Shown here piece by piece: positions 4,336 to 33,581 of a stretch of 38,081 nt of DNA (within the stretch, counting starts at the first letter, position 1; every line of letters starts with the position of its first letter). The stretch comes from Candidatus Hydrogenedentota bacterium (GTDB taxonomy: Bacteria; JBFMHD01), in assembly GCA_040752395.1 (NCBI GenBank), contig JBFMHD010000003.1, positions 1-38,081 of the forward strand, in the 5' to 3' direction. Both the position numbers and the translations under genes were made by a program. The notes under the pieces are model-generated. The model searched no databases and was not told the origin of the DNA. It saw only the letters and a program-made list of their open reading frames with translations.

Positions 4336-4422
4336 AAGTAAAAAGTTAAAAGCTAAAAGTGAGAGAGGTGTTCGTAGGAGCACATTGTGGTCGGCCGAGG
4401 CAGGAAGCAAGATAACGGAAAA
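4336..4422. repeat. Partial composite element (AAAAGTT heptamers plus GAAGCAAGATAACGG module)
   Basis: aagtaaaaagttaaaagctaaaagt matches 12703-12734; gaggcaggaagcaagataacggaa matches 5040/5086/25730. Confidence 0.7.
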
Positions 4423-4478
4423 CCGTTGTAGTGGTGGGCGTATGTGTCTGGCCGTAGGGGATTTTTGATTATTTTATT

Positions 4479-4571
4479 GGAGAGGTGGCCGAGCAGGTCG
4501 AAGGCGGCACCCTGCTAAGGTGTTGTCCGGGGAAACCTGGACCGGGAGTTCAAATCTCCCCCTCTCCGCCA
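4479..4571 (+). tRNA. tRNA-Ser (anticodon GCT)
   Basis: Acceptor stem GGAGAGG/CCTCTCC + GCCA; anticodon arm GCACC-CTGCTAA-GGTGT; long variable arm; T-loop GTTCAAATC. Confidence 0.96.
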
Positions 4572-4712
4572 TTTCTTGTAAAGCCAATTTTCCTGAAACA
4601 ACACTCCAAAAATTCGGTGGCTCACATTCGGCGAGTGAACAATAGTAATTTTGATTTGTGGATAACCAGTCATTCATAAGCATCATATATGAAAAACAGT
4701 GGTGATTAACAA

Positions 4713-4742
4713 GAAAAATTAGTTCAGGATAGTCTGAACTAA
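4713..4742 (-). terminator. Possible intrinsic terminator for the - strand ccdA operon
   Basis: Stem TTAGTTCAG/CTGAACTAA (4719-4727/4734-4742) followed by a T run on the - strand. Confidence 0.4.
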
Positions 4743-4999
4743 AAAAGAGTATTTAAAACTGTACTGGTTTATAATCATCGTTGAGCAAGGATACGGTAAA
4801 CGGCAAAATAGACAAAAGAGCACAAAGGAATATTGTGGCTGCGTTGAGAGAGTGATTACCAGGCATCAGCCCGGGGCTGTTTATCGTCACATAGTACATA
4901 AGAATAAATAGTTTCTTGTGGTGGAGGACCACGTGCAGTGGTTGTTTGGTTGAAATATCCGGTTCAACTCATAGCGGCACTTTGGACATCGAAGCCATT

Positions 5000-5342
5000 C
5001 CTCCTCTGAAAAACATTGTAACTCTAATGATATCAAGTAGAGGCAAGAAGCAAGATAACGGAAAAGAAAGATAACGAAAGAAGCAAGAGGCAAGAAGCAA
5101 GATAACGGAAGAAGTGAGAGGTGTCAGGACAGGCTACAGGCTACGGACTACAGCCGGCTGGAGCCCCCTATGAAAAGTCTTGAGTCTTGAGTCCTGTTTT
5201 GACTCACGACTTGCGACTCACGACTCTTTTTATATCATCTTTAGTTTTTTATCCTTTGTGTAGAGCGCAAAAACGCAATAACCCAAGAACCCAAGAACCT
5301 AATAGTGTAGAGCGCAAACGGCACTCATAGTGACCCCTCTGA
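5000..5342. repeat. Composite heptamer/hairpin element (modules A-A'-B-C)
   Basis: Near-identical blocks at 11165, 15913, 21763 and 33346. Confidence 0.92.
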
Positions 5343-6027
5343 TCAATAAGTATAGTGCAATGAGAATAAAAATAATACCTGCAATTTTTTTGAATACGAT
5401 TCCTGTCCATTGTATTGAACGTGATTCAACAATTCGTTTCACCCATCCGGTTGATGTTCCTGCAATAAGAATCGGGATGCATTGACCAAGCGCAAATATT
5501 ATGATAAGCGAAATCCCGCGGAGTGCGGTTTTCTGCAAAGCAACCATTGCTAACATTGGTGCGATAAACCCGAAGGTACATGGTCCTGAGACAATACCAT
5601 AACTGGATCCCAGAAGCAGTGCACCAATCATCCCCTTGCGTGTCGCCCGCAGTTTTTCAAGTCCGGGAATGGAGATTGGTAAAAACCCTAACAGATGAAT
5701 GCCGATAATCAAAAAAAACACGCCGATGATAAGGTAGCAGATGCCGCCAGTTAAACCCAATATCTGTCCCGCCAGTGATGTAATCACGCCGATAAGAGCG
5801 ATCACAATGAACAGTCCGAGCGAGAATAGGGCAGAATACCAGAACGCATTTTTTATTTTTTTATCCTCTGTAAACCCGCTAATGTAAGCAATAACGAGCG
5901 GGATACATGCTATAAAGCAGGGACAGAATATCACGCTGCAGATTCCCCACACAAAAGAAGCTGCAAACGCAATAAAGCCGCTGTCGGTCAAGGATAGATT
6001 GATTATGGTAAAAAAATTGTCAATCAC
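5299..6027 (-). CDS. ccdA: Cytochrome c biogenesis/thiol-disulfide transporter CcdA (DsbD TM domain)
   Basis: About 6 TM helices; conserved PC motifs (FCPCF..IP, SGPCT). Confidence 0.85.
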   Translation of the reverse strand: MIDNFFTIINLSLTDSGFIAFAASFVWGICSVIFCPCFIACIPLVIAYISGFTEDKKIKNAFWYSALFSLGLFIVIALIGVITSLAGQILGLTGGICYLIIGVFFLIIGIHLLGFLPISIPGLEKLRATRKGMIGALLLGSSYGIVSGPCTFGFIAPMLAMVALQKTALRGISLIIIFALGQCIPILIAGTSTGWVKRIVESRSIQWTGIVFKKIAGIIFILIALYLLIRGVTMSAVCALHY

Positions 6028-6551
6028 TTAACCCCTCGCCGGTTAAGTATCTTTATAATTTCTTTTTCCGAGAGATATCCTTCGTGTCGAAAGAATTCTT
6101 TACCGTTTTCATCAAGAAATATCTGAGTGGGAATAAGTCGTATGTCGTACTGTTCAGCCATCGGTTTACCAAGCGGAGTCCAGACATCAAAGGTCTGAAC
6201 CTCGACCTGTCCGGCATATTTTTGCCTGATTGATTCTATTACCGGTTCCATCATCCGACAGGGCATACAGCGTTTGGACATAAGTTCAATTAACGTCACT
6301 TTGATTTTTGGTTTGCTCTGTTCCTGCAGCATCTGCGTTATGGTTTCAGCAGCAGGTTTATCAGCTATCGGCTGATGTACAGGTTCTGGTGCTGTCACCT
6401 GTTTAGTATCTGATACAGTAACCAGAGCCGAGGTATCGGTGGCAGGAAGAGCTGGTTGTTGAACCACTGTTGTGACCGGAGTGGTTGTTTTTCCGCAGGC
6501 GAGGAGTAAAGAGAAGCAGAAGTATAAGTAAATTATCTGTTTTATAATCAT
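6024..6551 (-). CDS. Thioredoxin-family lipoprotein with Pro/Thr-rich linker
   Basis: Lipobox LLACG; CMPC active site; cis-Pro IPTQIF..G.E..RH.G. Confidence 0.85.
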   Translation of the reverse strand: MIIKQIIYLYFCFSLLLACGKTTTPVTTVVQQPALPATDTSALVTVSDTKQVTAPEPVHQPIADKPAAETITQMLQEQSKPKIKVTLIELMSKRCMPCRMMEPVIESIRQKYAGQVEVQTFDVWTPLGKPMAEQYDIRLIPTQIFLDENGKEFFRHEGYLSEKEIIKILNRRGVK

Positions 6552-6727
6552 TGTTGCCTCCTATATGATTTTTTATGCACTTTATTATATGCCTGGCAAA
6601 ACGGGCAATATCGTTCTATGCGGCTGATGTGCTGTGTGGTTTCTGACTGTGCGTGGCGCCGGCGCCAGATGCAGAAGGGGCAGATCGTACAAACAAGCGC
6701 AAGCAGTTTCAGCCAGGCCATTCTCAT
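6548..6727 (-). CDS. Small (59 aa) Cys-rich protein with two CPFC motifs
   Basis: GGAGG RBS upstream of ATG 6727; CTICPFC...YCPFC; stop overlaps the next start. Confidence 0.7.
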   Translation of the reverse strand: MRMAWLKLLALVCTICPFCIWRRRHAQSETTQHISRIERYCPFCQAYNKVHKKSYRRQQ

Positions 6728-6740
6728 GTTATGCCTCCCT

Positions 6741-7766
6741 TTATTGCGCAACGAGAAATACCATGCCAGCAAGCAGTCCGACAATGATGTTTATCAGTTT
6801 GATAATGACAAAATCCTTGCGCGACAGCGAAAGCATCGGCAACATGGCGTGACCATCCTGAACAATCGAGTTGCAAAGCAGTATCGCAAACGGCAGAACA
6901 CCCTTGGCATACAGGGTGACAAACAGAAGGTGCGGACCGGATTCCGGGATAATGCCAACGACCGCGGAAAGCAGGAGTACCGCATAAACATTGTCGCTAA
7001 TAAACGATTCAATGGCAAAGGTTTTAATCAAGCAAGATGACAGCAGTAGTGCACCGAAGGTCCACGCAAAGATCGGGGCGATATGCTCCTTGAAAATATG
7101 ATTCCAGAGATGCTCTTCGAGAAAATGCTCTGGCGTCACCGTCACCAAGGCCAGGCTAATCACCGAGGTCAAGAGGGTAGTGACTCTCACCCAGTTCCAG
7201 CCACCGTGCTCGCCGATATAACCGGAGAGTACACCCAGAGCAAGGAGTGACAGGCAGATGATCAGCACCCCGCGCTGCAGGGTCATATGTTTCAAATTGC
7301 TGATGATCTGGTTTTTAGCGAACCCGATGAGTTTTTCTTCCTTGTGGATTATGAGACCACGGCAACAGGTATCAGTGAATGAACGATTTTTGAAAAGATA
7401 ATCGACAGTCTTTGCCGCGACAATCCCAATGACAAACAACAGGATGTGAAGAACTATTGTCTGGACTGGGAACAGAGTTAGCATAACAAACGCTTCGTCG
7501 CCAGAAGTGGCAATCATTGTGCAGACCAGGGCACCAAGCGTAATCTGGTTGTGCGCATAGAGGGTAACGCTCACGAACGAACCGAGACAGCCCGGGATAA
7601 TGCCCAGGATGCCGGCAATGATGTATTGAGAGAAGCCGGTACGGATTCTATTCAGGATGATACCGCTGGTGACGGTATTAATGTATTCCACAATCAGCAT
7701 CATGCAGAACACGAACACCGTGATAAAAATCGAATGGTTGAAACTTTCCCGAATCAGTTCAATCAT
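6741..7766 (-). CDS. Multi-pass permease, putative manganese/arsenic efflux transporter family (ArsP_2-like)
   Basis: PGCLG, IATSGDEAF, GIIPESGPH, SIVQDGH motifs; about 10 TM segments. Confidence 0.78.
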   Translation of the reverse strand: MIELIRESFNHSIFITVFVFCMMLIVEYINTVTSGIILNRIRTGFSQYIIAGILGIIPGCLGSFVSVTLYAHNQITLGALVCTMIATSGDEAFVMLTLFPVQTIVLHILLFVIGIVAAKTVDYLFKNRSFTDTCCRGLIIHKEEKLIGFAKNQIISNLKHMTLQRGVLIICLSLLALGVLSGYIGEHGGWNWVRVTTLLTSVISLALVTVTPEHFLEEHLWNHIFKEHIAPIFAWTFGALLLSSCLIKTFAIESFISDNVYAVLLLSAVVGIIPESGPHLLFVTLYAKGVLPFAILLCNSIVQDGHAMLPMLSLSRKDFVIIKLINIIVGLLAGMVFLVAQ

Positions 7767-7778
7767 ACCTTAATCATT

Positions 7779-7854
7779 CCTAACTTCGAAAAACTTCGCA
7801 ACTATAATTAATAATATCAAATAGAAGCAAGAAGCAAGATATTTGGTTATCGGT
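7779..7854. repeat. Partial composite element (module A variant)
   Basis: taataatatcaaatagaagcaagaagcaagata; 7822-7854 is inverted at 9706-9738. Confidence 0.8.
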
Positions 7855-7856
7855 AC

Positions 7857-8642
7857 TTATGGCGCGATGTTTTTTCCTCTCCGCCTAATGGTCTCCGCGC
7901 TGCTGATCGGCTGAATCTGTTTTACCTTAGCGTCATACACCATGACAACTTGCTGATTTTTAAAGTATCTTTTTATAACGTCCATATCCTGCTGTGAAAG
8001 CGGCCGAACGCCGCAAGGACGCAACGGTGTGTTTAAATGTGCTTCATCAGGCTTGATTTCATCAGCAAGAGCCGCCAGTTGTTTCACCTGGTGCTGATTA
8101 TGCTCGATAAACATAATCTGTAGCACCAGCTGGCCCGTGTATTCGTTCCTGAAATCTTTTATACCACGGATAATATCATTCAACCGAATACGTTTTACTG
8201 GCTTGTTAACTGCCTCAAAAATCTCCTGCGTTGCCGCGTCAAGTTTCACGGCGACTAAATCAGCTGCCAGCAAATCCTGGCGGACAGCGGTCTGCGACAG
8301 CAGAGATGCGTTAGTCAGCACCGCGATTTTCTCGGGACGGACATTTTTTATCTTCAGAATCAGTCTGCCAAGATTCTTTGCCAGTGTCGGTTCACCGGTG
8401 CCGGACAGGGTGATATAGTCAATCTGCAGTGGTGGTAGACTTTTTAATTCTTTTATGATTTGCTCAATCGCAACAAATTCTTTCCGCTGATCCGTGCACG
8501 TTTTCGTTTTTCCGAGCTGGCAGTAAACGCAGTCAAAAGAACATATCTTGTGTTTCCGCGAAATCGGGTCAATGCCAAGTGAACTGCCTAATCGCCAGGA
8601 CGGCACAGGGCCGTAAACGTATTTCAATTTCGACGTAGCCAT
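7857..8642 (-). CDS. Radical SAM protein (Fe-S oxidoreductase, function unknown)
   Basis: YGPVPSWRLG.SLGID, CSFDCVYC (CxxxCxxC), SGTGEPTL. Confidence 0.9.
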   Translation of the reverse strand: MATSKLKYVYGPVPSWRLGSSLGIDPISRKHKICSFDCVYCQLGKTKTCTDQRKEFVAIEQIIKELKSLPPLQIDYITLSGTGEPTLAKNLGRLILKIKNVRPEKIAVLTNASLLSQTAVRQDLLAADLVAVKLDAATQEIFEAVNKPVKRIRLNDIIRGIKDFRNEYTGQLVLQIMFIEHNQHQVKQLAALADEIKPDEAHLNTPLRPCGVRPLSQQDMDVIKRYFKNQQVVMVYDAKVKQIQPISSAETIRRRGKNIAP

Positions 8643-8652
8643 AATGCATCTC

Positions 8653-8973
8653 TCACCGCAGGTGCGGTTTAATTCTTTCCTCGAGCGCCGATTTTTTCAT
8701 CACGCCAATCATAGTATCAACGACCTTTCCCTGCTTGAAGATCATCAGAGTCGGGATACTCATAATGCCGAATTCCGAAGCTGTACGTAACGCTTCATCG
8801 ACATTTAGTTTGCCGACTTTCAGTTTGCCCTGGTACTCTTTCGAAATCTCCTCGATCACCGGTTCCATCATCCGACAGGGCCCGCACCAGGGCGACCAGA
8901 AATCCACCAGCGCCGGGATCGGCGACTCAAGTATATCTTCCTTAAAATTATCATCGCGTAACTCGATCTCCAT
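8653..8973 (-). CDS. trxA: Thioredoxin
   Basis: VDFWSPWCGPC, SIPTL; GGAGGA RBS before ATG 8973. Confidence 0.93.
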   Translation of the reverse strand: MEIELRDDNFKEDILESPIPALVDFWSPWCGPCRMMEPVIEEISKEYQGKLKVGKLNVDEALRTASEFGIMSIPTLMIFKQGKVVDTMIGVMKKSALEERIKPHLR

Positions 8974-8993
8974 TGGATAATCCTCCAAGCTTT

Positions 8994-9668
8994 TTATATA
9001 CAACAATCTTCGACCCCTACTTCTTTGACAATATTAAAAGCTTTATCAATAAATTCCTCTCGCTTAATATTAAGCAGGTCTTTCACACAGGTAAAACGCT
9101 CTCGATTATAATCGCTCCCGTATACCTTAATATATAGATCTTCTGGTATAGAATATAAAATAGACCCATGCTGTAAAGAACCGAACCTGGTTCTATATTG
9201 AGCACTGCCCATTATCTTTTTACCGTTAACCGCTATCTCATTGTATGAAATAGAATCAAAACAATGCCTTCCTTTACCTTTTTTCTGTTTACCACAAATT
9301 TTAGCCTTTATTCCAAGGTTAAAAAAAATTCTTAAAAATATCCTGTGGATAGCTTCAGTTAGCCCCAAGATAGTTGTATCTTGCGGATAAAATTTTGTGG
9401 GGATTGCCAGACAATAGCTTATATCATCAGTATGTAAAACACTCCTGCCACCTGTCGGCCGTCTCACTATATCAATACCATTTATGGTCTTCTGCCACTT
9501 TTCAAATTTACCAATCGATAAAGTAGGCTTAATCCAGGTATAAAGCCGAAATATGATTTTATTTATTTTTATCGCGTGCTCAAACATCTGTAAATCCTTT
9601 TGCATATTACAAAAGCCAGTATCAGAACAATCTTTTGTTAAAATTAGATTATTATTTATAATTTCCAT
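8994..9668 (-). CDS. Lipoate-protein ligase A/octanoyltransferase (LplA/LipM family)
   Basis: RLYTW..PTLSIG, RRPTGGRSVLH, KKIMGSAQ, LQHGSI. Confidence 0.88.
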   Translation of the reverse strand: MEIINNNLILTKDCSDTGFCNMQKDLQMFEHAIKINKIIFRLYTWIKPTLSIGKFEKWQKTINGIDIVRRPTGGRSVLHTDDISYCLAIPTKFYPQDTTILGLTEAIHRIFLRIFFNLGIKAKICGKQKKGKGRHCFDSISYNEIAVNGKKIMGSAQYRTRFGSLQHGSILYSIPEDLYIKVYGSDYNRERFTCVKDLLNIKREEFIDKAFNIVKEVGVEDCCI

Positions 9669-9705
9669 ATCTTTGCTAGTGTTTCATAAGTTCGATGTTC
9701 GGTTC

Positions 9706-9738
9706 ACCAATAACCGAATATCTTGCTTCTTGCTTCTA
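9706..9738. repeat. Inverted copy of module A variant
   Basis: 31/33 match to the reverse complement of 7822-7854. Confidence 0.8.
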
Positions 9739-9744
9739 ATTTCA

Positions 9745-11121
9745 TTAACCTGTTTTTAAAAAGAATTTCCAGTTTGTTTCAAAAGTATCAAGGTCAATAA
9801 AATATATCTTTTTAAATGCTTCCCCAAATGTGTCACCCTGATGTATCGTGTCAAGTAGCCTTATAAATGAATATTCACCATAGGTTTTACTCAAATAGTA
9901 TGCTACAGAATATGATTCTTTATAAGCTTGAGCTGCCTTTTTCGCATCTTCAAATTTAACAAAAGTCGTGTTGAGGGTCTTTAATGGCAACCAATCAGGT
10001 GTATCAATAGTCAAAGCAAGCTCTTTTCTATATTCATCAGACCAGGTTCTGCTCGGCTCAAAATACTGCGCAAGCCCTTCATTCATCCATACCGTTATCT
10101 CGTTTCCCACCCTTTCATGAATAAGTGCGTGAACATATTCGTGATAAAGAATATCTTTTAGCTGTTTTTGATTTCCTGATATATCACCCTCTTTAACACG
10201 AATCTTACCATCATATAAACCACCGGACCAATCAGGTACCCCGGAGACTGTTTTATATTTTTCGCCGGTATAAATAATAACAGTGAGTTTTTTTGCAGAC
10301 CAGAACCCTATCTTGTTCCTTAATAAATAATATGCTTCATCAAGAATATTTAACACCTGCCAGGCTAAATCAGACCGCTCAATGCCTTCATACTTAACTG
10401 TAAACCGAACCCGTTTGGTCTTTTTATAATTTTTTTCCTGGCTATACTCCTTTTTAGCTTTCTCATATTTATATCTAATCATATCGTTATCCGGGTCATA
10501 TTTCAAAGTCTCTCCATAATACTTTATAGCATTTTCCAGGTCATCCTCATCATAGTATATGTTTCCGAGGCCGGATAAAGCAGTAACAGAATCAGGTTTG
10601 TATTTTAATACGTTTAATAAAGCATTCTTTCTTAGGTCACCATCAACACTGAAGGCATAATTCAGCGTAAGATTAACATAATTGTCTTTCAATGTTTTAT
10701 TAGAAGGATCGTACTCTATAGCTTTATAAGCATAGGAGATAGCGTCATTAAGTTTGCCTTTGGAAGCTATATAAACAGCATAATTACCATAAAGGATCGC
10801 TAAAGTTTTTGATACTTCTTTATTATTCTTAAGTTTGCGGGCTCTTTTAGCCCATTTCAATGCATCATTAAACTTCTTTTTCTCTATTAAATAACTTGCA
10901 AGACTTAAATAACTCTTGAATAAATTTTCTTTAATAATCTCTTCATCTGGTTTTAAGCGATACGCCTTTTCAAAACACTTAACCGCCTCATTCCAATCTC
11001 CCTTTTGTGTTGCCTGGACACCTTTCTCATTCCAGTAAGAAGCAGATTCCTCACCCAAAAGAACAACATTGAAGATAAATACTACTAAAATTATACTGTA
11101 TAGAAAATATCTTATCATCAT
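9745..11121 (-). CDS. Exported TPR-repeat protein with C-terminal peptidase MA-like (gluzincin) domain
   Basis: Signal peptide; TPR repeats; HEYVH...WMNEGLA zinc motif. Confidence 0.85.
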   Translation of the reverse strand: MMIRYFLYSIILVVFIFNVVLLGEESASYWNEKGVQATQKGDWNEAVKCFEKAYRLKPDEEIIKENLFKSYLSLASYLIEKKKFNDALKWAKRARKLKNNKEVSKTLAILYGNYAVYIASKGKLNDAISYAYKAIEYDPSNKTLKDNYVNLTLNYAFSVDGDLRKNALLNVLKYKPDSVTALSGLGNIYYDEDDLENAIKYYGETLKYDPDNDMIRYKYEKAKKEYSQEKNYKKTKRVRFTVKYEGIERSDLAWQVLNILDEAYYLLRNKIGFWSAKKLTVIIYTGEKYKTVSGVPDWSGGLYDGKIRVKEGDISGNQKQLKDILYHEYVHALIHERVGNEITVWMNEGLAQYFEPSRTWSDEYRKELALTIDTPDWLPLKTLNTTFVKFEDAKKAAQAYKESYSVAYYLSKTYGEYSFIRLLDTIHQGDTFGEAFKKIYFIDLDTFETNWKFFLKTG

Positions 11122-11138
11122 ATCAGATCCTATGAAAG

Positions 11139-11331
11139 AAGTTAAAAGTAAAAAAATATCTCTTCGGGCTACAGGCTAGAGGCTACGGACTACAGCTGGC
11201 TGGAGCCAAAAGCCCAAAGCCTGCTGAAAAGTCTTGAGTCTTTGAGTCTCGAGTCCTGTTTTGACTCACGACTCTTTTCATATCATCTTTAGTTTTTCAT
11301 GCTTTCAACATTTTTATCTTCTGTCTCCTCT
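11139..11331. repeat. Composite element (modules D-B-I)
   Basis: ggctacaggctag..ggctacggactacag..aaagtcttgagtc..gactcacgactc..catctttagtttttcat. Confidence 0.9.
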
Positions 11332-11332
11332 C

Positions 11333-12616: not shown

Positions 12617-12633
12617 AGTTTTTTATCATCTTC

Positions 12634-12848
12634 CTTCGAAAAAGTTCGAAGTTCGGAGCTCGTATCTATTATTACGAACTCCTAACTTCTAACTCCTATG
12701 ACAAGTTAAAAGTAAAAAGTCAAAAGTTAAAAGTAAAGAAAGCGAAAATATACACTTCCTTGCCGTATCTTTCAATTTTTTAATCTTTCAATCTTTGTGC
12801 CTTTGTGCCTTTGTGCCTCTGTGCCTTTCCATTCTGTCTCCTGTCTTC
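12634..12848. repeat. Composite element of 7/8-mer arrays (GAAGTTC/CTAACTT, AAAAGTT, CTTTGTGC x4, TCTCCTG)
   Basis: Visible tandem degenerate repeats shared with 4336, 7779, 11139, 16776 and 33551. Confidence 0.85.
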
Positions 12849-15905: not shown

Positions 15906-15912
15906 ATACTAT

Positions 15913-16240
15913 CTCCTCTGAAAAACGTTGTAACTCTAATAATATCAAGTAGAAGCAAGAAGCAAGATAACGCGAGAACGCAAAAACGCAATAACCCAAT
16001 AACCCAAGAACACAATAACACAATAGTGTAGAGCGCAACCCGCGCTCATGTTGACTCCTCTGAAAAAAGTAAGAAGTAAGAAGTGAGAAGTATGAGGACA
16101 GGCTACAGACTACGGGCTATGGACTACAGCCGGCTGGAGACAAAAGCCCAAAAGTCTGCTGAAAAGTCTTGAGTCTCGAGTCCTGTTTTGACTCACGACT
16201 TGCGACTTTTGACTCTTTTCATATCATCTTTAGTTTTTCA
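15913..16240. repeat. Composite element (modules A-C-A'-B)
   Basis: Same modules as 5000-5342 in a different order. Confidence 0.92.
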
Positions 16241-16687
16241 TATTAATTTTTTAGAGTCAAGAATGATAGTAACTGGTCCATCGTTCTTTATTTCAACGAG
16301 CATCTTTGCACCGAATCTGCCTGTCTGAACTTTAAGCCCCAAACCCTTTATCTTCTCAACATATTTATTATACCATATCTCGCCTTCAAGTGGCGGTGCT
16401 GCATCATCAAAACTCGGTCTTCTGCCTCTTCTACAATCAGCAAGGAGTGTAAATTGACTAACTATAAGAATCTCTCCCTTTATGTCAAGGAGAGATAGAT
16501 TCATTTTACCCTCATTATCTTCAAATATCCTTAAATTAATCGTTTTATCAACAAGATAATTTAAATCATTCTCTGTATCGTTCTTTTCCGCGGCAAAAAG
16601 CACAACCATACCCGCAGATATCTCTCCCACGGTATCGCGATGGATTATTACTTTTGCCTCTTTAACTCGCTGTATCACTATTCGCAT
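16238..16687 (-). CDS. dtd: D-aminoacyl-tRNA deacylase
   Basis: MRIVIQRV, SQFTL, GRRPSF, NDGPVT. Confidence 0.96.
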   Translation of the reverse strand: MRIVIQRVKEAKVIIHRDTVGEISAGMVVLFAAEKNDTENDLNYLVDKTINLRIFEDNEGKMNLSLLDIKGEILIVSQFTLLADCRRGRRPSFDDAAPPLEGEIWYNKYVEKIKGLGLKVQTGRFGAKMLVEIKNDGPVTIILDSKKLI

Positions 16688-16702
16688 TGTCGTTTTGCTC
16701 CA

Positions 16703-16828
16703 TTGTAAATTGTAGATTGCAAATTGCTTTATTTAGAAGCGAGATAACGGAAGAAGTGAGAGGTATCGGGACGGGCTTTGTGCCTCTGGCTGCCTGCCGC
16801 GGTGGAGCGCGGCGCGGGCAGGTACCTT
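16703..16828. repeat. Partial composite element plus GC-rich CCTGCC...GGCAGG hairpin
   Basis: gaagcgagataacggaagaagtgagaggtatcgggac matches 33394-33429; hairpin 16793-16822. Confidence 0.8.
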
Positions 16829-20148: not shown

Positions 20149-20161
20149 TTTGGTTCACCAG

Positions 20162-21754: not shown

Positions 21755-21762
21755 CGATATAC

Positions 21763-22150
21763 CCTCCTCTGAAAAACGCTGTAACTCTGATAATTCGGGC
21801 TACAGGCTACGGGCTACGGACTACAGCCGGCTGGAGCCAAAAGCCCAAAGCCTGCTGAAAAGTCTTGAGTCTTGAGTCTCGAGTCCTGTTTTGACTCACG
21901 ACTTGCGACTCACGACTCTTTTTATATCATCTTTGGTTTTTCATATATTGTGTAGAGCGCAAAAACGCAATAACCCAAGAACCCAAGAACCCAATAGTGT
22001 AGAGCGCAACCCGCGCTCATGAGTACTCCTCTGTGCCTGTCTATAGATGGGTAAACCCGGCTCTACTACGGGTCTTGTGACCCTCACTACTGGACTGATT
22101 TCATTTTGCGATCTGCATTTTGCATTTTTCAATTTGCAATTCGACATTCG
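21763..22150. repeat. Composite element (modules A(part)-B-C-F-G) between SRP RNA and dnaX
   Basis: Shares B and C with 5000/15913; gggtcttgtgaccc with 31332; TTTGCAT heptamers. Confidence 0.9.
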
Positions 22151-22165
22151 CAAGAATGTCGTCTA

Positions 22166-22442
22166 ACGGTTGTGCACCTGAAACTCGACCAGTTGGGATA
22201 AGCTCAATCAAAATAAGAGGTCTCCGGTCCAGCACCTCTGCGGCTCACAGGTAAAATTGTTTATGGCTGCTCGGTTCCCCGCCTGACCAGGTTCACAAAT
22301 AACCTGTAGCACAGAACCAGACCTTCATCGACCCACAATCTTAATTGCTTTTTACCTTGCCTTGCCTCATATCAGGAATTAAGCCCTGCTATGGCGGGTT
22401 GCAGGTTCAGGGCACCGCCAGCTCCCCGCTTAGCACAACCGT
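22166..22442 (-). ncRNA. ffs: Large bacterial signal recognition particle RNA (Alu + S domains)
   Basis: Terminal helix ACGGTTGTGC/GCACAACCGT; Alu region GCGGGGAG..GCGGTGCCCTG.ACCTGCAA.CCGC; helix 8 GTCAGGCGG-GGAA-CCGAGCAGC; upstream of dnaX as in Bacillus scr. Confidence 0.92.
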
Positions 22443-22491
22443 AATCATATCTCATACATCATCGCCATTGAAAAGTGTGCCTATAAAAATT

Positions 22492-22522
22492 ATTGTATAT
22501 CATAATTTAATTTTATAGTCAA
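22492..22522 (-). promoter_or_regulatory. Candidate promoter for SRP RNA/dnaX
   Basis: TTGACT...TACAAT on the - strand, 19-nt spacer (long). Confidence 0.3.
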
Positions 22523-22596
22523 AAATATTATTTTTTATAACGAGTGTTTATAGATTTTTTCTCTTTCTTTAAAAATGTCTATTAAGGTTTCTTTTG

Positions 22597-24581: not shown

Positions 24582-24585
24582 ATTT

Positions 24586-25694: not shown

Positions 25695-25716
25695 AAGATA
25701 AACCCCTCTAATATAA

Positions 25717-25780
25717 AAGCAAGATACAAGAGGCAAGAAGCAAGATAACGGAAGAAGTAAGAAGTGAGAACTAAAGAAGT
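25717..25780. repeat. Partial element (GAAGCAA and GAAGTAA heptamers)
   Basis: gaggcaagaagcaagataacggaagaagtaagaagtgagaa. Confidence 0.8.
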
Positions 25781-25781
25781 A

Positions 25782-26207
25782 TCAGGGAACAGATGGTGGT
25801 AGTTTTTTGGTTAATCTTAAAAGATTACCAGGTGTAAAACTTTCGTCGTATTCCCAGGAATCCATAATGGTTCTTATAAAATGGACACCAAGACCATGCG
25901 GTCTTATATCATCCAGGTCACGCGGTCTAATTTTCGAGACATCAACTTTGGGGCCATAATCGATAATTTCTATTACCAGTCTGCTACTATTGGGTTGAAA
26001 AGATATCTCGATAGGACTATTACAGTCACCTTTATAACAATGTCTGATTATATTTGTTACAGCTTCATCTACACAGAGTTTTATCCGATTAACATCTTCT
26101 TCAGAAAATTTTAATGTAGTAGTAATTTCTTCTGTTACTCGTCTCACAGAAGATAGATATTTAGACTTACCAGGTATCTTAATTACTATTTTTTCAGCAT
26201 CATCCAT
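25782..26207 (-). CDS. Anti-sigma factor/Ser kinase (RsbW/SpoIIAB-like HATPase_c)
   Basis: VDEAVTNIIRH N-box, IIDYG, GLGVHFI...MD, PGN.L.LTK. Confidence 0.88.
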   Translation of the reverse strand: MDDAEKIVIKIPGKSKYLSSVRRVTEEITTTLKFSEEDVNRIKLCVDEAVTNIIRHCYKGDCNSPIEISFQPNSSRLVIEIIDYGPKVDVSKIRPRDLDDIRPHGLGVHFIRTIMDSWEYDESFTPGNLLRLTKKLPPSVP

Positions 26208-27492
26208 TTTTTTTCTCTACTATCAACAGAGTAATGTCATCCTTCTGTTTCGTTCCTTTACAAAAGTCATCGATACTCTTCAAAATATTATTAATAAGTT
26301 CCTCACCATTTTTATCAATATTTTTAATTAAAACATCTTTCAATCTCTTAACACCAAACAATTCTTCTTTATAATTGGAGGCTTCACTAATACCGTCACT
26401 GTACATTAATAACAAGCTTCTTTCCTGTATGGTGATATTTCGGGATTCGTAATTAGCGTATTCAACAATTCCAAGTGGTGGCCCACTTGCCTCACATATC
26501 TCTATAACTTCTTTTTTGATTTTATCAAGTAACATCACTGCACAATGTCCTGCATTAGCGATACTAATATCGCCGTTTAGCGGGTTAATAAACCCTATCA
26601 CAGAAGTAATAAACATACCGCGATGACTTCTTGGACAAAGGATTTCATTTAAGGCGTTCAGTAATTTATCAGGTGAAGAATAATGTGAAGCCATATGACG
26701 TAAATCAGATATAAACCGTGCCATAAATAATGCTGCAGAAACCCCTTTGCCTGATACATCACCTATAACAAAACAGATCTCACCATTTGCTAAATTAAAA
26801 ACATCATACAGATCACCGCCAACCTCCAACGCGGTTTTATTATAAGCATAGATATTAAATAAATTAGATTCAGGAAAACTTTTGGGTAGAAACGATTGTT
26901 GTATCTCTTTACCGAACTCAAGTTCGCGGATAACTCTGTCCTTCTCAATCTCCACTTTATGAAGCCGCGCATTCTCAATGGCAACTGCGACAAGGTTGCA
27001 AAATGCAGTAAACATCTGAAGGTCTTCTTTATCAAATATCCTGTCCCCCCTTTTATTTATCACCTGACCTGTACCGATAACTTTATTTTTAGCTTTTAAA
27101 GGTACACACATAATACATTTTGTTCTAAACCCTGTCTCATCATCAAATTTTCTGTGAAAGCGCGGGTCTTTATAAGCATCTTCTATAAGCAATGGTTCGC
27201 CATTCTCTGCAACCCAGCCTGAGATACCCTGACCTACTTTTAATCTGAACTTATTTTTTAATTCATCAGCCACCTCACCGCGCGCCACCTCAAAATATAG
27301 CTCCTGTCTTTCTTCATCAAGCAGCATAAAAGACGAGGCATCAGCTTCCATAATCTCCTCAGATAACTTTAATACATTCGCTAATATCTCCTGAAGATTA
27401 AAACTTACACTGATCGACGCTGTCAACGATATCATCTCGTATATCTTATCTACTATCTCTCTGTACCTTTTTAATGTTTCATTGTTTGTCAT
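26200..27492 (-). CDS. GAF + PP2C (SpoIIE/RsbU-like) Ser phosphatase
   Basis: GAF with GISGWVA, FD.ETGF.TK, INK; PP2C VGGDLYD, IGDVSGKG, NAGH, YSDGISEA, DDIT. Confidence 0.92.
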   Translation of the reverse strand: MTNNETLKRYREIVDKIYEMISLTASISVSFNLQEILANVLKLSEEIMEADASSFMLLDEERQELYFEVARGEVADELKNKFRLKVGQGISGWVAENGEPLLIEDAYKDPRFHRKFDDETGFRTKCIMCVPLKAKNKVIGTGQVINKRGDRIFDKEDLQMFTAFCNLVAVAIENARLHKVEIEKDRVIRELEFGKEIQQSFLPKSFPESNLFNIYAYNKTALEVGGDLYDVFNLANGEICFVIGDVSGKGVSAALFMARFISDLRHMASHYSSPDKLLNALNEILCPRSHRGMFITSVIGFINPLNGDISIANAGHCAVMLLDKIKKEVIEICEASGPPLGIVEYANYESRNITIQERSLLLMYSDGISEASNYKEELFGVKRLKDVLIKNIDKNGEELINNILKSIDDFCKGTKQKDDITLLIVEKKNG

Positions 27493-27823
27493 TTCTTTGC
27501 TCCCACCAGTCTTTCCATTTTTCTATAATAAGCTGTTTCTTATTTTGACTTAAATATACTCTAAACCCAAAATCCACTCCTGTCAAGTCAATTAATGCAT
27601 TATTTGCAAAAGTCTGGACCGTTGTCTCATCATCATTCAATAAATCTATAAGTTTAGGGATATCTGAGGTTCTGTTTTTCTCAACTATATATTGTATCGC
27701 CTCTATTTGTTTAATCGGGTCTTTAGAACTCAATCTCGAACTATGGATATATGGATCATATCTGGAACAAGAAGCAAGAAGCAAGAAAATCGGGACAGCT
27801 CTTAATAAAATATTTTTTTTCAT
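27479..27823 (-). CDS. Putative internally initiated HEAT-repeat lipoprotein (114 aa), in frame with the neuB-like ORF
   Basis: AAGGGA upstream of ATG 27823; MKKNILLRAVPIFLLLAS-C lipobox; IPKLIDLLNDDETTVQ..A..AL..LTG..FG...W..WW. Confidence 0.65.
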   Translation of the reverse strand: MKKNILLRAVPIFLLLASCSRYDPYIHSSRLSSKDPIKQIEAIQYIVEKNRTSDIPKLIDLLNDDETTVQTFANNALIDLTGVDFGFRVYLSQNKKQLIIEKWKDWWEQRNDKQ

Positions 27824-28768
27824 TATATTCTTCCCTTTTGTTATATTAGCTATCACTTTCGCACCGATGATTTCTAATAAAGGCTTTATACCATCCTGTG
27901 GTCGAAGTATCGATATATCTTCTTTCTTAATCACCTCACCCTTTTTTAAATCTCTTATAGCCACAGGGCTGCGCCGGGAAGTGTATCTTAAGTTTAATTC
28001 TTCTGCAATGAAATCTTTTGTGAAATTTTTTATATTCTCCTCGAGCTCTCTTATTTTCTTAACCATTTCCTTAAATTCGACTGGCGTTATCGATGCAGTA
28101 TGGTCAGGCCCTTTCAGTCTTTTATTCAGCGTAAAATGTTTTTCTATGACAGAAGCACCGCAAAATACAGCAATAATCGCAGATTCCAAAGAAGTAGTAT
28201 GGTCAGAAAAACCAACAGGAATTCTATATCTTTTTATCAAATACTCAATCTTTCTCAGGTTTGATTTAGAAAAAGAACAGGGATATAATGAGACACAATG
28301 CATTAAAACAAAATTCACTTTATTTTTTTTCAAAAAGTTTACGGTTTTATCAGCCTCTTTTATTGTACTTGCACCTGCCGAAATAAATACAGGCAGTTTT
28401 TTCGATATGACCTCTTTTATAAAAATAAAATTATTAAAATCGCCTGAGGCTATCTTTAAAAAATCAGGTTCTAATTTTACGGCATTATCAAGGGTATCAA
28501 AACAAAATGGCGTTATACCAAAATCAATTTTATATCCATAAACAAAATCTCTTATCTTCTGCCACTGTTTAAAAGTAAAAGTATATTTACTTAAAATTTC
28601 AAATATCTTTTCGTCTCTTTTTACAAGGTTTTCAGGTATAAAATATTGGAACTTTACAGCATCAGCACCAGACTCTTTTGCTTCCTTTATAAGTTCTCTG
28701 GCTAACTTAATGCTACCATTATGATTAATTCCTATCTCTGCAACTATATACGTTCTTTTAAATCTCAT
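27479..28768 (-). CDS. N-acetylneuraminate synthase family (NeuB/SpsE/PseI-like, with SAF domain) read through in frame into a HEAT-repeat lipoprotein
   Basis: IVAEIGINHNG, GADAVKFQ, KIASGD, LMHCVS.YP, GFSDHT, IEKHFTL, GPDH; SAF domain ends near residue 320. Confidence 0.88.
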   Translation of the reverse strand: MRFKRTYIVAEIGINHNGSIKLARELIKEAKESGADAVKFQYFIPENLVKRDEKIFEILSKYTFTFKQWQKIRDFVYGYKIDFGITPFCFDTLDNAVKLEPDFLKIASGDFNNFIFIKEVISKKLPVFISAGASTIKEADKTVNFLKKNKVNFVLMHCVSLYPCSFSKSNLRKIEYLIKRYRIPVGFSDHTTSLESAIIAVFCGASVIEKHFTLNKRLKGPDHTASITPVEFKEMVKKIRELEENIKNFTKDFIAEELNLRYTSRRSPVAIRDLKKGEVIKKEDISILRPQDGIKPLLEIIGAKVIANITKGKNIMKKNILLRAVPIFLLLASCSRYDPYIHSSRLSSKDPIKQIEAIQYIVEKNRTSDIPKLIDLLNDDETTVQTFANNALIDLTGVDFGFRVYLSQNKKQLIIEKWKDWWEQRNDKQ

Positions 28769-29669: not shown

Positions 29670-29677
29670 ATCTTAAA

Positions 29678-29908
29678 TTAGCCCCCGGAGAGTATAGGAA
29701 ATATAAATATCTCATTACAAACACCAATGGTTTCATCATTTCCTTTTTTTCTACCCTCTATCACCACTTGCATAATTTCACCCTTGGGAAGATTAAGAAA
29801 AGATATTAGCTTTTTAATCTTCATATCAGGTTCAAGTTCAAGTATCTTTATCTCTTCACCATTATTATAGTGTCTTAAACTTGCTAAAAAATTAATTTTC
29901 ACTTGCAT
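29678..29908 (-). CDS. MoaD/ThiS-family sulfur carrier
   Basis: Beta-grasp pattern MQVKINFLASL... ending FPILSGG; near AOR. Confidence 0.85.
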   Translation of the reverse strand: MQVKINFLASLRHYNNGEEIKILELEPDMKIKKLISFLNLPKGEIMQVVIEGRKKGNDETIGVCNEIFIFPILSGG

Positions 29909-29913
29909 CTTGT

Positions 29914-31188: not shown

Positions 31189-31238
31189 AGGTAATCCTGG
31201 AAAGATAATTTATTAGTTTTTTTCTCTCCTATTGAGAA

Positions 31239-31268
31239 ATTTTAGTGAAGATTAGAAAACCTGTCAAG
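31239..31268 (-). promoter_or_regulatory. Candidate sigma-70 promoter of the ATPase gene
   Basis: TTGACA (31263-31268) - 18 nt - TAAAAT (31239-31244) on the - strand. Confidence 0.45.
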
Positions 31269-31510
31269 AAAATTTCAGGAGATTTCTTGGAAAACCTCAT
31301 TTTTTAAAGACAGCTCTAAAGTCTAAAGAACGGGTCTTGTGACCCTCTTTACATTATATTGATTATATTGAAATTACAAAAAATAAAAAATGTGTAGTGA
31401 GCATCTTTAGATGCGATGACCAGGTTTTTCAGAACTCTCTTCAGCAGGTCTTGTAATCCCTTAGTTATAGGCGGGAGTAAGAAGCAAGAAGCAAGAGATT
31501 TCATTCCGGC

Positions 31511-33340
31511 TCAAGGGATACCAAGTTCTCTAAGTTTCTCTTTTGTTGGTATCCCGAACTCGTCCCACTTCCTTATATTATAGTATGCATACAACATATT
31601 CCCTAAATCTGCAAGCACACCTTTTGCTTTACCATCAGGTTTTGCACCTGCAAACATCCTCGGTGGCAGCACATCATCTTTTCTACTTATCCCAAGCCTT
31701 ACATCAAACATCCGCTTCAAATTAACAAGCCTCTCACCTGTTCTCATAACATCATCCATCGTAAAATCAAAACCACATACAGCATTGAGCCACTGAGCTA
31801 TTATTTTAGGACCTACTCTACCTATGAATAAAAATTTACATAATCCAAGCGGATTAAAACAAGAGAGATAATTCTGCATATTAACTACAATCTGGGGTTT
31901 ATCATCGGATCTATGGGAGTCAGGGGCCACGGTATAACCCAGGTCTTCTACAGGAATCCCTCTATCAAGGAAATAAGTCAAGGCTTCAAGATGACAACCG
32001 CCACGAACAGCTGTGGCATAATTAAGCGACATACCAACATGTGCTCGCGGGTCATGGCCGGGTATCTCAAGCCCCTTTACCTCAACAGCCAGTTCTTGTG
32101 CATTCTTCCCTATCGTTAAAGCAGCTCTCCTGACACCAAGAGCTAATATATCACCTATGTGCTCCCTTTTTCCTATCATCTTAACAAGCTCAACAACAGA
32201 TTTTCCACCCCATTCTAATTTTAAACCACCTGTCTCCTTCTCAGTAATTATACCTCTTTCAAAAGCTTCGATAGCAAATGACACAAGATGACCACAGGAG
32301 ATAGTATCCATACCAAATTTATTACATAACTCATTTGCTTCAATCAAATCAAGCGGGTTGTCATTCAAACAATTTGAGCCGAGCATACCGATTGTTTCGT
32401 ATTCAGGACCATGACCATAGAGGTTTCTCTCTGGTACCTTATAAATTTTAGCACAACGTATGGGACAGGAAAAACAGGAATAATGTCGATCAAGATAAAG
32501 CGGTTGCATAGCCTGACCCGCAATCTTTTTCGCACCCTCTTTCCACGAACCAAGCTGCCAGTTCTTTATCGGTAAATCACCATACATCTCAACTGTCTCA
32601 ACACCACCAGATGTACCAAAGTTTGTAAGTCCAACTGTAAATTCTTTTATTTTCGGTATCTGTGCTTTAAGAAGTTCTTTGAGCAATTCTTTATTTGCGA
32701 TATTCGGGATTTTCTTACCTTTTACAGCTATGGCTTTTAAGTTTTTACTACCCATAACAGCACCTATACCACCACGAGCAGCAACCCGTGAGATTGGCGG
32801 ATCAAATATAATGCTTGCAAAAAAGGTAAGGTTTTCACCAGAAGGACCTATGGTACAAATCTTAAAATCATCACCTAATTCTTTAGCTAATATTTCTCCT
32901 GTTATGTAGGTATCTTTGGCCCAAAGATGAGATGCATCTCTTATTTCAATTTTTTCTTCTGTTATGCAAAGATAGACAGGTTTCTCGGATTTACCTGTTA
33001 TTATCATCCCATCAAAACCAGTAAATTTGAAAGTTGCAGGCCAGTGACCACCAACGGTTGCTTCGTTCCATATACCTGTAAGCGGCGATTTAGCACATAC
33101 AGAGAGTTTTGAAGAAGCTGGTATTGTCGTTCCTGTAAATAAACCCGCCATAAAAATTAATTGGCTTTGTGGAGATAATGGTTCTATATTTTCTATATCT
33201 TTCCAGTGGCTGAGTATCTTTGCACTGAGTCCTGAACCCATAAAATATTTTTTCACGTCTTCTTCATTGATAGGTATCTCTTCAGTCTTTTTATTGGATA
33301 AATCAATCTTCAATATTTTACCGTGATAACCATTTGTCAT
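31511..33340 (-). CDS. Tungsten/molybdopterin aldehyde:ferredoxin oxidoreductase family protein
   Basis: GY.GKIL.IDLS, KSPLTG, RGG.GAVMGSKNLKAI, C..CPI.C, PEYET, GMDTIS, DPR, RGGCH. Confidence 0.93.
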   Translation of the reverse strand: MTNGYHGKILKIDLSNKKTEEIPINEEDVKKYFMGSGLSAKILSHWKDIENIEPLSPQSQLIFMAGLFTGTTIPASSKLSVCAKSPLTGIWNEATVGGHWPATFKFTGFDGMIITGKSEKPVYLCITEEKIEIRDASHLWAKDTYITGEILAKELGDDFKICTIGPSGENLTFFASIIFDPPISRVAARGGIGAVMGSKNLKAIAVKGKKIPNIANKELLKELLKAQIPKIKEFTVGLTNFGTSGGVETVEMYGDLPIKNWQLGSWKEGAKKIAGQAMQPLYLDRHYSCFSCPIRCAKIYKVPERNLYGHGPEYETIGMLGSNCLNDNPLDLIEANELCNKFGMDTISCGHLVSFAIEAFERGIITEKETGGLKLEWGGKSVVELVKMIGKREHIGDILALGVRRAALTIGKNAQELAVEVKGLEIPGHDPRAHVGMSLNYATAVRGGCHLEALTYFLDRGIPVEDLGYTVAPDSHRSDDKPQIVVNMQNYLSCFNPLGLCKFLFIGRVGPKIIAQWLNAVCGFDFTMDDVMRTGERLVNLKRMFDVRLGISRKDDVLPPRMFAGAKPDGKAKGVLADLGNMLYAYYNIRKWDEFGIPTKEKLRELGIP

Positions 33341-33345
33341 CGAAA

Positions 33346-33581
33346 CCTCCTCTGAAAAACATTGTAATTATAATAATATCAAGTAGAAGCAAGAAGCAAG
33401 ATAACGGAAGAAGTGAGAGGTATCAGGACAGGCTACAGGCTACGGACTACAGCCGGCTGGAGACAAAAGCCCAAAGCCTGCTGAAAAGTCTTGAGTCTTG
33501 AGTCCTGTTTTGACTCACGACTCTTTTCATATCATCTTTAGTTTTTCATCCTTTGTGCCTTCTCCTCCTGTCTTCTGTCTC
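33346..33581. repeat. Composite element (modules A-B-E-I)
   Basis: Closely matches 5000-5255 and 15913-16240. Confidence 0.92.

Follow-up and report, generated by a model that had tools for sequence, protein, structure and literature searches.

Seven-nucleotide units are over-represented among the simple repeats of bacteria, and one account states that there was no detailed literature on them in 2015 (PMC4692102). The short tandemly repeated repetitive (STRR) sequences of Calothrix and Nostoc are, like the repeats analysed here, few-copy 7-nt arrays that occur many times per genome, mostly between genes, and are reported without an explained function (PMC4692102). Sets of two to six TAACTGA units are reported in marine Beggiatoaceae, some Cyanobacteria and Bacteroidetes, mostly in forward orientation and just upstream of start codons; like the present repeats they stand before the starts of unrelated genes, and their horizontal spread was suspected, with no mechanism found (MacGregor 2015, PMC4679880). 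The terms "helix bundle" and "intervening sequence" do not occur in that paper (PMC4679880). A third system is the intervening sequence in the 23S rRNA of Coxiella burnetii, which carries an S23p (PF05635) open reading frame (ORF), is excised by RNase III and is discussed in terms of reductive evolution and as a selfish element (PMC4990558). Here we analyse a 38,081-nt contig of a Candidatus Hydrogenedentota genome (the window, meaning this whole stretch), in which about a dozen intergenic sites are assembled from a shared kit of 7- and 8-nt tandem arrays and hairpins. The kit recurs hundreds of times in the genome, follows the direction of the downstream genes, and shares array units with the inverted arms that enclose small PF05635 genes elsewhere in the same genome.

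The source is a metagenome-assembled genome (MAG) of 2.84 Mb in 349 contigs, with 35% GC and 94% completeness, the sole member of its phylum among the genomes compared (genome label G000; the window is its contig C223). Tandem Repeats Finder returned 4,059 non-redundant arrays from the whole genome, 2,442 of them intergenic. Period 7 accounts for 1,725 arrays (1,489 intergenic) and period 8 for 610 (416 intergenic), every other period reaching at most 326 arrays; under equal settings, 80 unrelated metagenome loci gave period 7 in 31 of 255 rows and period 8 in 17. The arrays are short, with three to four copies overall and about 3.5 on average at period 7, and they draw on some 25 dominant types, at least 25 different units having been counted. 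The commonest are GAAGCAA (323 arrays), the GGCTACA type (214), GAGTCTT (178), GACTCAC (106) and GTGCCTTT (106). An earlier note on this DNA had listed about 12 sites built from one kit, with units nearly always of 7 or 8 nt, and both statements stand: Tandem Repeats Finder and direct reading found the arrays and modules at the sites, a blind mask of 12-mers occurring at least 40 times in the genome recovers them, and the period counts extend the unit length to the whole genome.

The genome-wide scan that the note had called for places the family throughout the genome. Module A gives 301 matches to a 22-nt pattern, far more than chance would yield (no match with the reversed control or in any of 40 other genomes), and module B 319 to a 23-nt pattern. 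Near-full-length copies number 151 for module A, about 170 for module B and 98 for module C, at median identities of 92%, 84-88% and 89%, respectively, so that "near-identical" was too strong a description of the modules. By the strict 12-mer mask, the kit makes up 27.5% of non-coding DNA against 2.2% of ORF-covered DNA, and it fills 25% or more of 330 of the 1,017 internal spacers that are 50 nt or longer. Repeat-rich sequence was found at 237 of 698 contig ends versus 76 of 2,000 random internal windows; because the assembly breaks inside repeats, the genome-wide copy and array counts are lower bounds, and since contig ends fall in repeats, repeat-rich regions are missing from the assembly.

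Read on the strand of the downstream gene, a full composite leads from the upstream stop codon through module C and module B to CCTCTCACTTCTTCCGTTATC (TTGCTTC)n TAC and then, in its 3' part, through TTGATATTAT TAKAGT TACARYGTTTTTCAGAGGAG and a further 4 to 12 nt to the ATG. Reverse-complemented, the ctcctctgaaaaac of the earlier note reads GTTTTTCAGAGGAG, a leader with a Shine-Dalgarno site, and the "ctcctc" with which the note opened module A is the Shine-Dalgarno site of the downstream gene seen on the other strand. For 227 of the 329 TTTTCAGAGGAG motifs, an ORF of 60 codons or longer starts 2-15 nt further on; 73 stand before nothing but a short ORF, and 29 have no ORF after them. Of the five motifs of this type in the window, three precede gcvH, dnaX and an oxidoreductase gene, and the other two a mini-ORF in module C and a 9-codon ORF. 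Across the genome, the ribosome-site end is co-oriented with the downstream gene in 220 cases and opposed to it in 18, and the module B core in 222 and 33, respectively. Conservation is near-complete up to GGAG and gone at the following base. The shared orientation reported for all sites but one is therefore true of the window and not a trait of the element: orientation follows the downstream gene, and nearly all genes between 5299 and 34856 lie on the minus strand.

Module order is mostly collinear, C-B-A to the ATG, with truncations and deletions, and not shuffled as had been proposed. With 12 anchors, 777 composites were defined, and the multi-module forms that recur often among them are nested, gene-terminal subsets of a single series (C w c-3 2 T 1 g-U t P R in anchor notation), such as "1 g U t P R" (18), "t P R" (16) and "2 T 1 g U t P R" (11); forms with internal deletions exist, for example "1 g R" (10), and 68 of the 777 are mixed-strand. 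The apparent A-C-B permutation at 15906-16237 is two tandem units, B with a ribosome-site motif and then C with A. By anatomy, polarity and copy number, these sites belong to one lineage-specific, gene-polar intergenic composite family. Module C opens with a ribosome site and ATG of its own before the hairpin GAGCGCGGGTTGCGCTC (24 sites genome-wide; 16040-16066 and 22006-22032 in the window), from which a hydrophobic mini-ORF (MSAGCALHYW...) reads. We considered module C as a small gene and rejected this: the ribosome site and ATG are real, but length and frame vary, the peptide having 31-32 aa in 10 of the 24 copies and 10 aa in 7, and it is not a conserved ORF because both properties shift with the copy number of the 8-mer.

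Folded as RNA, module B forms two long stems side by side, with a single-base bulge at every seventh position. In the first hairpin (B2), (GAGTCGT)n pairs with (GACTCAA)n across a 7-nt loop, the single mismatch per unit being G-A on one strand and C-U on the other; in the second (B1), the partners are a GGCTTTK run and (GTAGCCY)n, with the palindrome CAGCCGGCTG between them. At the base of the minimal B2 element is a perfect stem of 9 bp, TATGAAAAG/CTTTTCATA, and the statement that terminal inverted repeats are lacking does not survive these two hairpins. Elsewhere in the genome, three minimal copies consist of B2 alone and occupy the whole spacer between a stop codon and a ribosome-binding site; none of these three insertions shows a target duplication, in agreement with the earlier note. 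Arrays of GAGTCTT/GACTCAC and AACTCCT/CGGAGTT are for the most part paired, and the 415-nt spacer between the signal recognition particle (SRP) RNA gene ffs and dnaX, which contains module B, folds better than 100 of 100 shuffles (z = -5.5).

The 3'-terminal part of the composite is a gene-start module of about 40 nt, TTGATATTAT-TAKAGT-TACARYGTTTTTCAGA-GGAG, present in about 300 copies and consisting of a -10-like box, a short leader and an exact end at the GGAG that is the downstream Shine-Dalgarno site. The box keeps the form TA-A-T in 243 of 255 copies (TAGAGT 168, TATAGT 60, TATAAT 15). It is also found at tRNA genes: all three tRNA-Pro genes (contigs C5, C304 and C97, with different anticodons) have TATTAAAATTACA 5' of the mature end, stopping 0-1 nt short of the first base, with TAAAAT 6-7 nt ahead of the gene. 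At tRNA-Ser(tga) and tRNA-Tyr the whole module adjoins the gene, its GGAG being the tRNA's own 5' GGAG, so that two of four GGAG-starting tRNAs are preceded by it versus none of 38 others. As a ribosome-binding site is useless before a tRNA, these cases suggest from their sequence that the module has a promoter function, and that GGAG itself sets the 3' junction, as target or microhomology.

The genome has five PF05635 genes, none of them among the 35 main ORFs of the window, so that the window copies are at most gene-less derivatives. All five lie between same-strand ORFs. One of the proteins scores 116 bits on TIGR02436 (cut-off 24) and has 2RLD and 2GSC as relatives in the PDB; against the NCBIfam Avd model the same protein stays below threshold at 42.7 bits (cut-off 80). 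Wherever both flanks are assembled (4 of 4 genes), stem-forming inverted arms made of kit units enclose the gene, and in these four the left arm either follows immediately on the stop codon of the upstream gene or overlaps the last part of its ORF (Table 1). The link that the earlier note drew between such arrays and TIGR02436-type genes is thereby borne out. Identity among the five proteins is 24-47%, and each has its own arm unit. Two of the five genes are visibly decaying, one cut by its right arm (contig C284) and one with an internal deletion (the second on contig C92), and the arrays of the window share units and polarity with the arms of gene-bearing cassettes: GAAGCAA/TTGCTTC, GAGTCGT/GACTCAA and GGCACAAA/TTTGTGCC.

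Arrays that stand alone keep the left-arm/right-arm geometry of the cassettes. Solo (GAAGCAA)n in gene sense lies a median of 36 nt after the upstream stop (n=42), solo (TTGCTTC)n a median of 46 nt before the next start (n=101), and the B2 arms occur in sense and antisense at ratios of 40:4 and 60:3. By an automated criterion, inverted related arrays stand on both sides of only 33 of 2,490 ORFs; apart from the PF05635 genes, the small ORFs among these are ordinary genes. We also considered the 133 long-range inverted array pairs as composite transposons and rejected them, such pairs being in our judgement expected from the density of arrays; the 33 bracketed ORFs include tsf, rpsH and efp.

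The pairing of gene and heptamer arms recurs in unrelated genomes. In a sample of 40, PF05635 is present in 17, from which 22 loci were taken; the flanking inverted-repeat score exceeds the 95th percentile of 141 shifted controls at 15 of these, and period-7 arrays number 23 in 9.7 kb of PF05635 flanks versus 16 in the remaining 55 kb of these loci. In three of three genomes, the arm unit of the local cassette has 94, 130 and 30 matches in its own genome versus 0-4 per other genome (five genomes); for the unit with 30 matches the reversed control is uninformative, the reversed unit being a rotation of itself.

Modules of the present kit were found in none of the metagenomic DnaX relatives (at most 53% identical; blastn-short), viral contigs had 0 exact matches to the 23-nt module B core, and among the matches listed for species-representative genomes there were at least two loci with a module match. 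One, a 2.2-kb contig binned in another MAG (L010), is 98.5% identical to source copies over its first 140 nt; its composite, the sole copy in that 2.9-Mb genome, precedes a gene without match in the source genome, and the contig is probably a misbinned piece of the source organism or a close strain. The other listed locus, a single match in a Chlorobiaceae MAG, is by our estimate within chance for a 21-nt pattern and a genome set this large. A search of the indexed genomes found the modules in no further one. The gene ffs adjoins dnaX at 6 of 11 loci of distant relatives, with a gap of 18 nt at one of them (L090) versus 415 nt in the source genome. On several distant metagenome contigs with DnaX, the ffs-dnaX spacer contains hairpins whose heptamer arms are of other kinds: one with different arms at 2410-2487 of L016 and, in L024, (GTGACTG)4...(CTAGTCA)4, with hairpins at 2399-2488 and 4128-4199, in the spacer and just after dnaX.

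Compared with the described heptanucleotide repeats, the kit has the array architecture of the class and not its units: in this genome TAACTGA dimers number 0, and dimers of three cyanobacterial STRR units, with sequences that we presume to be the described ones, 0, 0 and 1. Unlike STRR sequences, it is non-cyanobacterial, comprises at least 25 unit types including 8-mers, and lies within a collinear, gene-polar composite. TAACTGA is reported as a single unit that replaces the ribosome-binding site, whereas the kit has many units upstream of a strong GGAG site (PMC4679880). The cassettes are like 23S intervening sequences in having a small four-helix-bundle ORF, itself subject to decay, in a stem-forming insertion within a transcribed region (PMC4990558); unlike them, they lie between protein-coding genes and have tandem 7/8-nt arms and hundreds of gene-less derivatives. 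A 23S rRNA contig was not found in the assembly. PF05635 resembles Avd, the accessory protein of diversity-generating retroelements (PMC10053308), and the cassette protein shares the fold family. We rejected identity with these retroelements, unlike which the genome has no reverse transcriptase match (RVT_1) in the assembly and no template/variable repeat pair, the Avd model also staying below its cut-off. In the open literature searched, we found no paper that ties PF05635/TIGR02436 genes to heptamer arrays.

Bacterial interspersed mosaic elements (BIMEs) and repetitive extragenic palindromic sequences (REPs) in enterobacteria, and BOX elements in pneumococci, are mosaic, hairpin-forming intergenic repeats in hundreds of copies, often between co-transcribed genes, and REPs are tied to the REP-associated tyrosine (RAYT, Y1) transposases. 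The kit shares with them the mosaic hairpin-forming modules and the hundreds of copies. We know of no REP, BIME or BOX element with a strict Shine-Dalgarno end, tandem-array arms or a PF05635 gene. Unlike a genome with REPs, the 94%-complete assembly has 0 matches to the Y1/RAYT model PF01797, the genome-wide transposase search having covered the Y1 family only; it likewise has 0 matches to RVT_1 and 0 to PDDEXK_3 (PF13366), the family to which we take GxxExxY proteins to belong, so that the proposed link to GxxExxY cassettes finds no support in this assembly. Among the 35 ORFs of the window, Pfam shows no transposase, as the earlier note had said, and no reverse transcriptase or four-helix-bundle gene; the check that the note had suggested, for a copy enclosing a four-helix-bundle, GxxExxY, HUH/RAYT or reverse transcriptase ORF, was negative in the window.

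The reading that we favour, with a probability of roughly one half, combines an origin of the arrays from cassettes, homology-driven spread, and a supply of transcript punctuation and gene-start signals. In such a cassette a four-helix-bundle gene stands between inverted arrays, wedged between co-directional genes. The array parts of the kit, three to five units of 7 or 8 nt, would be gene-less or half remains, or miniature derivatives, of small PF05635/TIGR02436 cassettes, some of them inverted pairs that fold into long bulged hairpins and others solo arrays, left arms by the upstream stop and right arms by the downstream start. As no mobiliser is evident, we propose that spread proceeds by homology-driven copying (gene conversion or template switching) without a dedicated transposase, for which the arrays and the GGAG end could serve as anchors. 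Once in place, the hairpins may act as RNase III or terminator-type punctuation of the transcript, by analogy with 23S intervening sequences (a single RNase III gene is present in the genome), and promoter and ribosome-binding site would come from the terminal module.

Several observations weigh against this combined reading. Its cassette part does not reach the whole kit: the B1 palindrome hairpin (319 copies), module C and the gene-start module have no gene-bearing counterpart in the assembly and no window copy contains a gene, so that the "empty cassettes" of the earlier note describe several arrays, those made of cassette arm units, and only part of the kit. Most arrays are solo (GAAGCAA is paired in 6 of 323 cases, GTGCCTTT in 2 of 106 and AACCCAAT in 0 of 56), and among 1,014 adjacent array pairs 747 have unrelated units, against 192 inverted and 65 direct. 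Taken whole, the 241-nt spacer at 33341-33581 has a fold no more stable than shuffled sequences have (z = -1.3), and PF05635 proteins have no known catalytic activity. As to the promoter, other tRNA genes have clear TTGACA-17-TAtAaT promoters, and the TTGCTT -35-like hexamer stands 14 or 21 nt from the box, not 16-18; module A is not among the 60 best sites of a consensus sigma-70 scan, and the promoter is proposed from the TA-A-T box and the tRNA cases. Finally, the direction from cassette to array is one that we infer, and the genes could lodge in hairpins that were already there.

This last possibility is the main rival, which we consider unlikely: arrays and hairpins would have spread on their own by slippage and gene conversion, and PF05635 genes would insert preferentially, or survive only, in hairpin loops, the kit not being derived from cassettes. 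The numbers speak for it, with some 2,300 period-7/8 arrays to five genes here, and one PF05635 gene to the 130 arm-unit matches in one of the comparison genomes (G011), as does the predominance of solo arrays; arrays also stand in frame inside a histidine-kinase ORF and in signal peptides, so that they can arise without a cassette. Harder to accommodate are the five divergent genes with five different arm units, which are easier to understand if gene and arms move together, the two genes caught decaying into their arms, and the cassette left-arm/right-arm positions of the solo arrays.

Still less probable, in our view, is an ordinary miniature inverted-repeat transposable element (MITE) or REP/BIME-type element whose transposase is unassembled, lost or of an unrecognised family. 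The palindromic hairpin units with their perfect 9-bp base stem, the hundreds of copies in mosaic composites and the excess of repeats at contig ends, which leaves repeat-rich regions unassembled, would all suit such an element. Against it, the hairpin ends come without target-site duplications at the three minimal insertions and without a transposase in the window, the assembly has neither a Y1/RAYT transposase nor a reverse transcriptase, strict gene polarity with an end exact at GGAG is atypical, and PF05635 is the only associated gene family.

We give little credence to a third alternative, in which arrays and leader would be bound in trans by a nucleic-acid-binding protein (CsrA, S1, a cold-shock protein or even the four-helix-bundle proteins) and would owe their similarity to selection for joint regulation, an idea also proposed for the TAACTGA repeats of Beggiatoaceae (PMC4679880). 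Position and polarity by start codons, the single CsrA gene of the genome and the published heptamer analogue, mostly just upstream of start codons (PMC4679880), are in keeping with it; it leaves unexplained the collinear similarity over ~40-330 nt with nested truncations, the at least 25 different units, the module before tRNA genes and the unrelated functions of the downstream genes. That collapsed or chimeric short-read joins mimic the mosaic is very improbable even in an assembly that breaks at repeats, given modules on hundreds of separate contigs with unique flanks, conserved neighbourhoods that cross composites (SRP RNA-dnaX, as at the distant relatives' loci, and gcvH-gcvPA-gcvPB-lpdA) and the same composite on a contig binned in another MAG.

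By Pfam, the 35 main ORFs of the window are ordinary housekeeping genes, including the glycine-cleavage system, dnaX, alr, dtd, miaA, an Mla transporter, an RsbW/STAS/SpoIIE set, an aldehyde:ferredoxin oxidoreductase (AOR) gene and rpoD; Rfam matched only tRNA and SRP RNA. GC content is 0.44-0.48 at 5001-9000 versus about 0.33 elsewhere, and this block, which holds DsbD-type, thioredoxin, ArsP_2-type, radical-SAM and thioredoxin genes, may be horizontally acquired. The inverted match of 28 of 30 positions between 7824-7853 and 9707-9736, with the sequence (GAAGCAA)2GATATTYGGTTATYGG, encloses radical SAM, thioredoxin and lipoate-ligase family genes; since the 33 bracketed ORFs of the genome include ordinary genes, this bracket may reflect array density only. 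The roughly 430 nt after tRNA-Ser (4572-4999) have no ORF and no Rfam match; a neighbouring frame there, WLRCPKCRYEL...HC, resembles a zinc ribbon, and the stretch may be a broken small gene.

Arrays also occur inside coding sequence. The (CTTCTTG)3 at 27768-27788 encodes FLLLASC, which forms the hydrophobic core and lipobox in the signal peptide of a lipoprotein (MKKNILLRAVPIFLLLASCSRYD...). Comparable cases exist on contigs C123, C144, C15, C196 and C302, the N-termini of several large secreted-looking ORFs elsewhere in the genome running across TTGCTTC arrays; arrays of this kind may have been taken over as signal peptides. The gene listed as 429 aa at 27479-28768 (minus strand) is probably two genes in one frame, a NeuB-family ORF continuing without stop into the small ORF of this lipoprotein. 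On contig C92, at ~3380-3420 of the minus strand, (GGCACAGA)4 lies in frame in the ATPase domain of a histidine kinase and adds about eight residues; the same ORF reads through the left arm of the adjoining decayed cassette.

Table 1. Kit sites, RNA genes and module copies of the window, with the PF05635 cassettes of the same genome. Positions are those of the window unless a contig is named.
Feature	Position	Strand	12-mer mask interval	Setting or state
(AAAAGTT)n array, then fragment GGAAGCAAGATAACGG, GAAGCAA left-arm type	4336..4422	+	4404-4422	Just 3' of TPR gene stop (4292), upstream of tRNA-Ser
tRNA-Ser	4479-4571			
Full composite, gene sense C - B (two hairpins) - A	4999..5298	-	4999-5319	Ribosome-site end (5001-5012) faces 4572-4999, where the only ORF has 9 codons
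Diverged module A: (TTGCTTC)2, AT-rich box, leader	7767..7856	-	7809-7841	Immediately upstream of ArsP_2-type gene (6741-7766)
(GAAGCAA)2 GATATTCGGTTATTGG in gene sense	9669..9744	-	9719-9739	Just 3' of stop of gene 9745-11121; only window array of opposite direction
Module B (hairpins B2 + B1) and AAAAGT-type array	11122..11332	-	11139-11300	Separates lpdA-like gene from TPR/peptidase gene
Arrays (CTTTGTGC)4.5, (ATCTTTCA)3.8, (AAGTTAA)4.6 and hairpin with arms CGGAGYT / AACTCCT	12617..12847	-	12632-12849	Between gcvPB and lpdA-like gene
Gene sense: B, second ribosome-site motif with module C mini-ORF start, C, A	15906..16237	-	15911-16242	Stops 7 nt short of gcvH start
(ATTGTAA)n array, fragment of module A upstream part, GC-rich hairpin	16688..16828	-	16742-16788	Between alr and dtd
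(TTTGCAW)n, hairpin GGGTCTTGTGACCC, module C, module B, short-form A	21755..22169	-	21763-22030	Spacer joining SRP RNA (ffs) and dnaX; A ends 9 nt before dnaX start
Large SRP RNA (ffs)	22170-22438	-		
GAAGCAA / AAGAAGT arrays with GATAACGG	25717..25786	-	25727-25786	Between RsbW-like and STAS genes
(CTTCTTG)3	27768..27788	-		Inside coding sequence
Hairpin GGGTCTTGTGACCC (31332-31345) and (AAGAAGC)2.6 (31479-31496)	31330..31497	-	31330-31497	Upstream of AOR gene's neighbour
Gene sense: (CAGRAGA)n, then B, then A	33341..33581	-	33345-33580	Starts right after aconitase-family gene stop; ends 6 nt before aldehyde:ferredoxin oxidoreductase gene start
Module A copies	5000-5122, 15913-15975, 33346-33424			
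Module B copies	5129-5258, 11167-11300, 16098-16237, 21798-21945, 33428-33548			
Module C copies	5268-5320, 15967-16050, 21950-22030			
Cassette, arms GAGGCAA/GAAGCAA ... TTGCTTC (module A's array)	contig C347			Gene intact, 121 aa
Cassette, arms (GAGTCGT)3 ... (GACTCAA)2 (B2 hairpin arms)	contig C284			ORF enters right arm, stops at profile position 75/106
Cassette, arms GGCACAAA ... TTTGTGCC (the CTTTGTGC arrays of the earlier note)	contig C92, second gene			Internal deletion
Cassette, arms CCACAGT/CAACAGT ... GTGGACT	contig C146			Gene intact, 124 aa
Cassette, GCGTTCTT 8-mers upstream	contig C92, first gene			Downstream flank off contig

For decades heptamer tandem repeats have been described from bacteria and left unexplained (PMC4692102, PMC4679880), and this genome is an extreme and unusually legible case, in which the same units stand around intact, decaying and absent four-helix-bundle genes. 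A wider generalisation, which we regard as doubtful, is that bacterial heptamer repeats at large are the footprints of one widespread cassette system, in which each Avd-like protein would recognise its own arms and the arm-gene-arm unit would be copied with precision into the gap that separates a stop codon from the following ribosome-binding site, gene-less derivatives having here been fused with a GGAG-ending promoter/leader module and copied to hundreds of genes. If true, a selfish element would now supply much of this genome's transcript punctuation and gene-start signals.

One repeat family can give near-identical gene-start signals to roughly a tenth of the genes of a genome, and such a family explains the fragmented assemblies of organisms of this kind. 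Tying long-unexplained heptamer repeats to a gene cassette turns a descriptive puzzle into testable questions: whether each protein binds its own arms, whether the hairpins are cut in the transcript, and how a unit comes to be copied onto a GGAG site.

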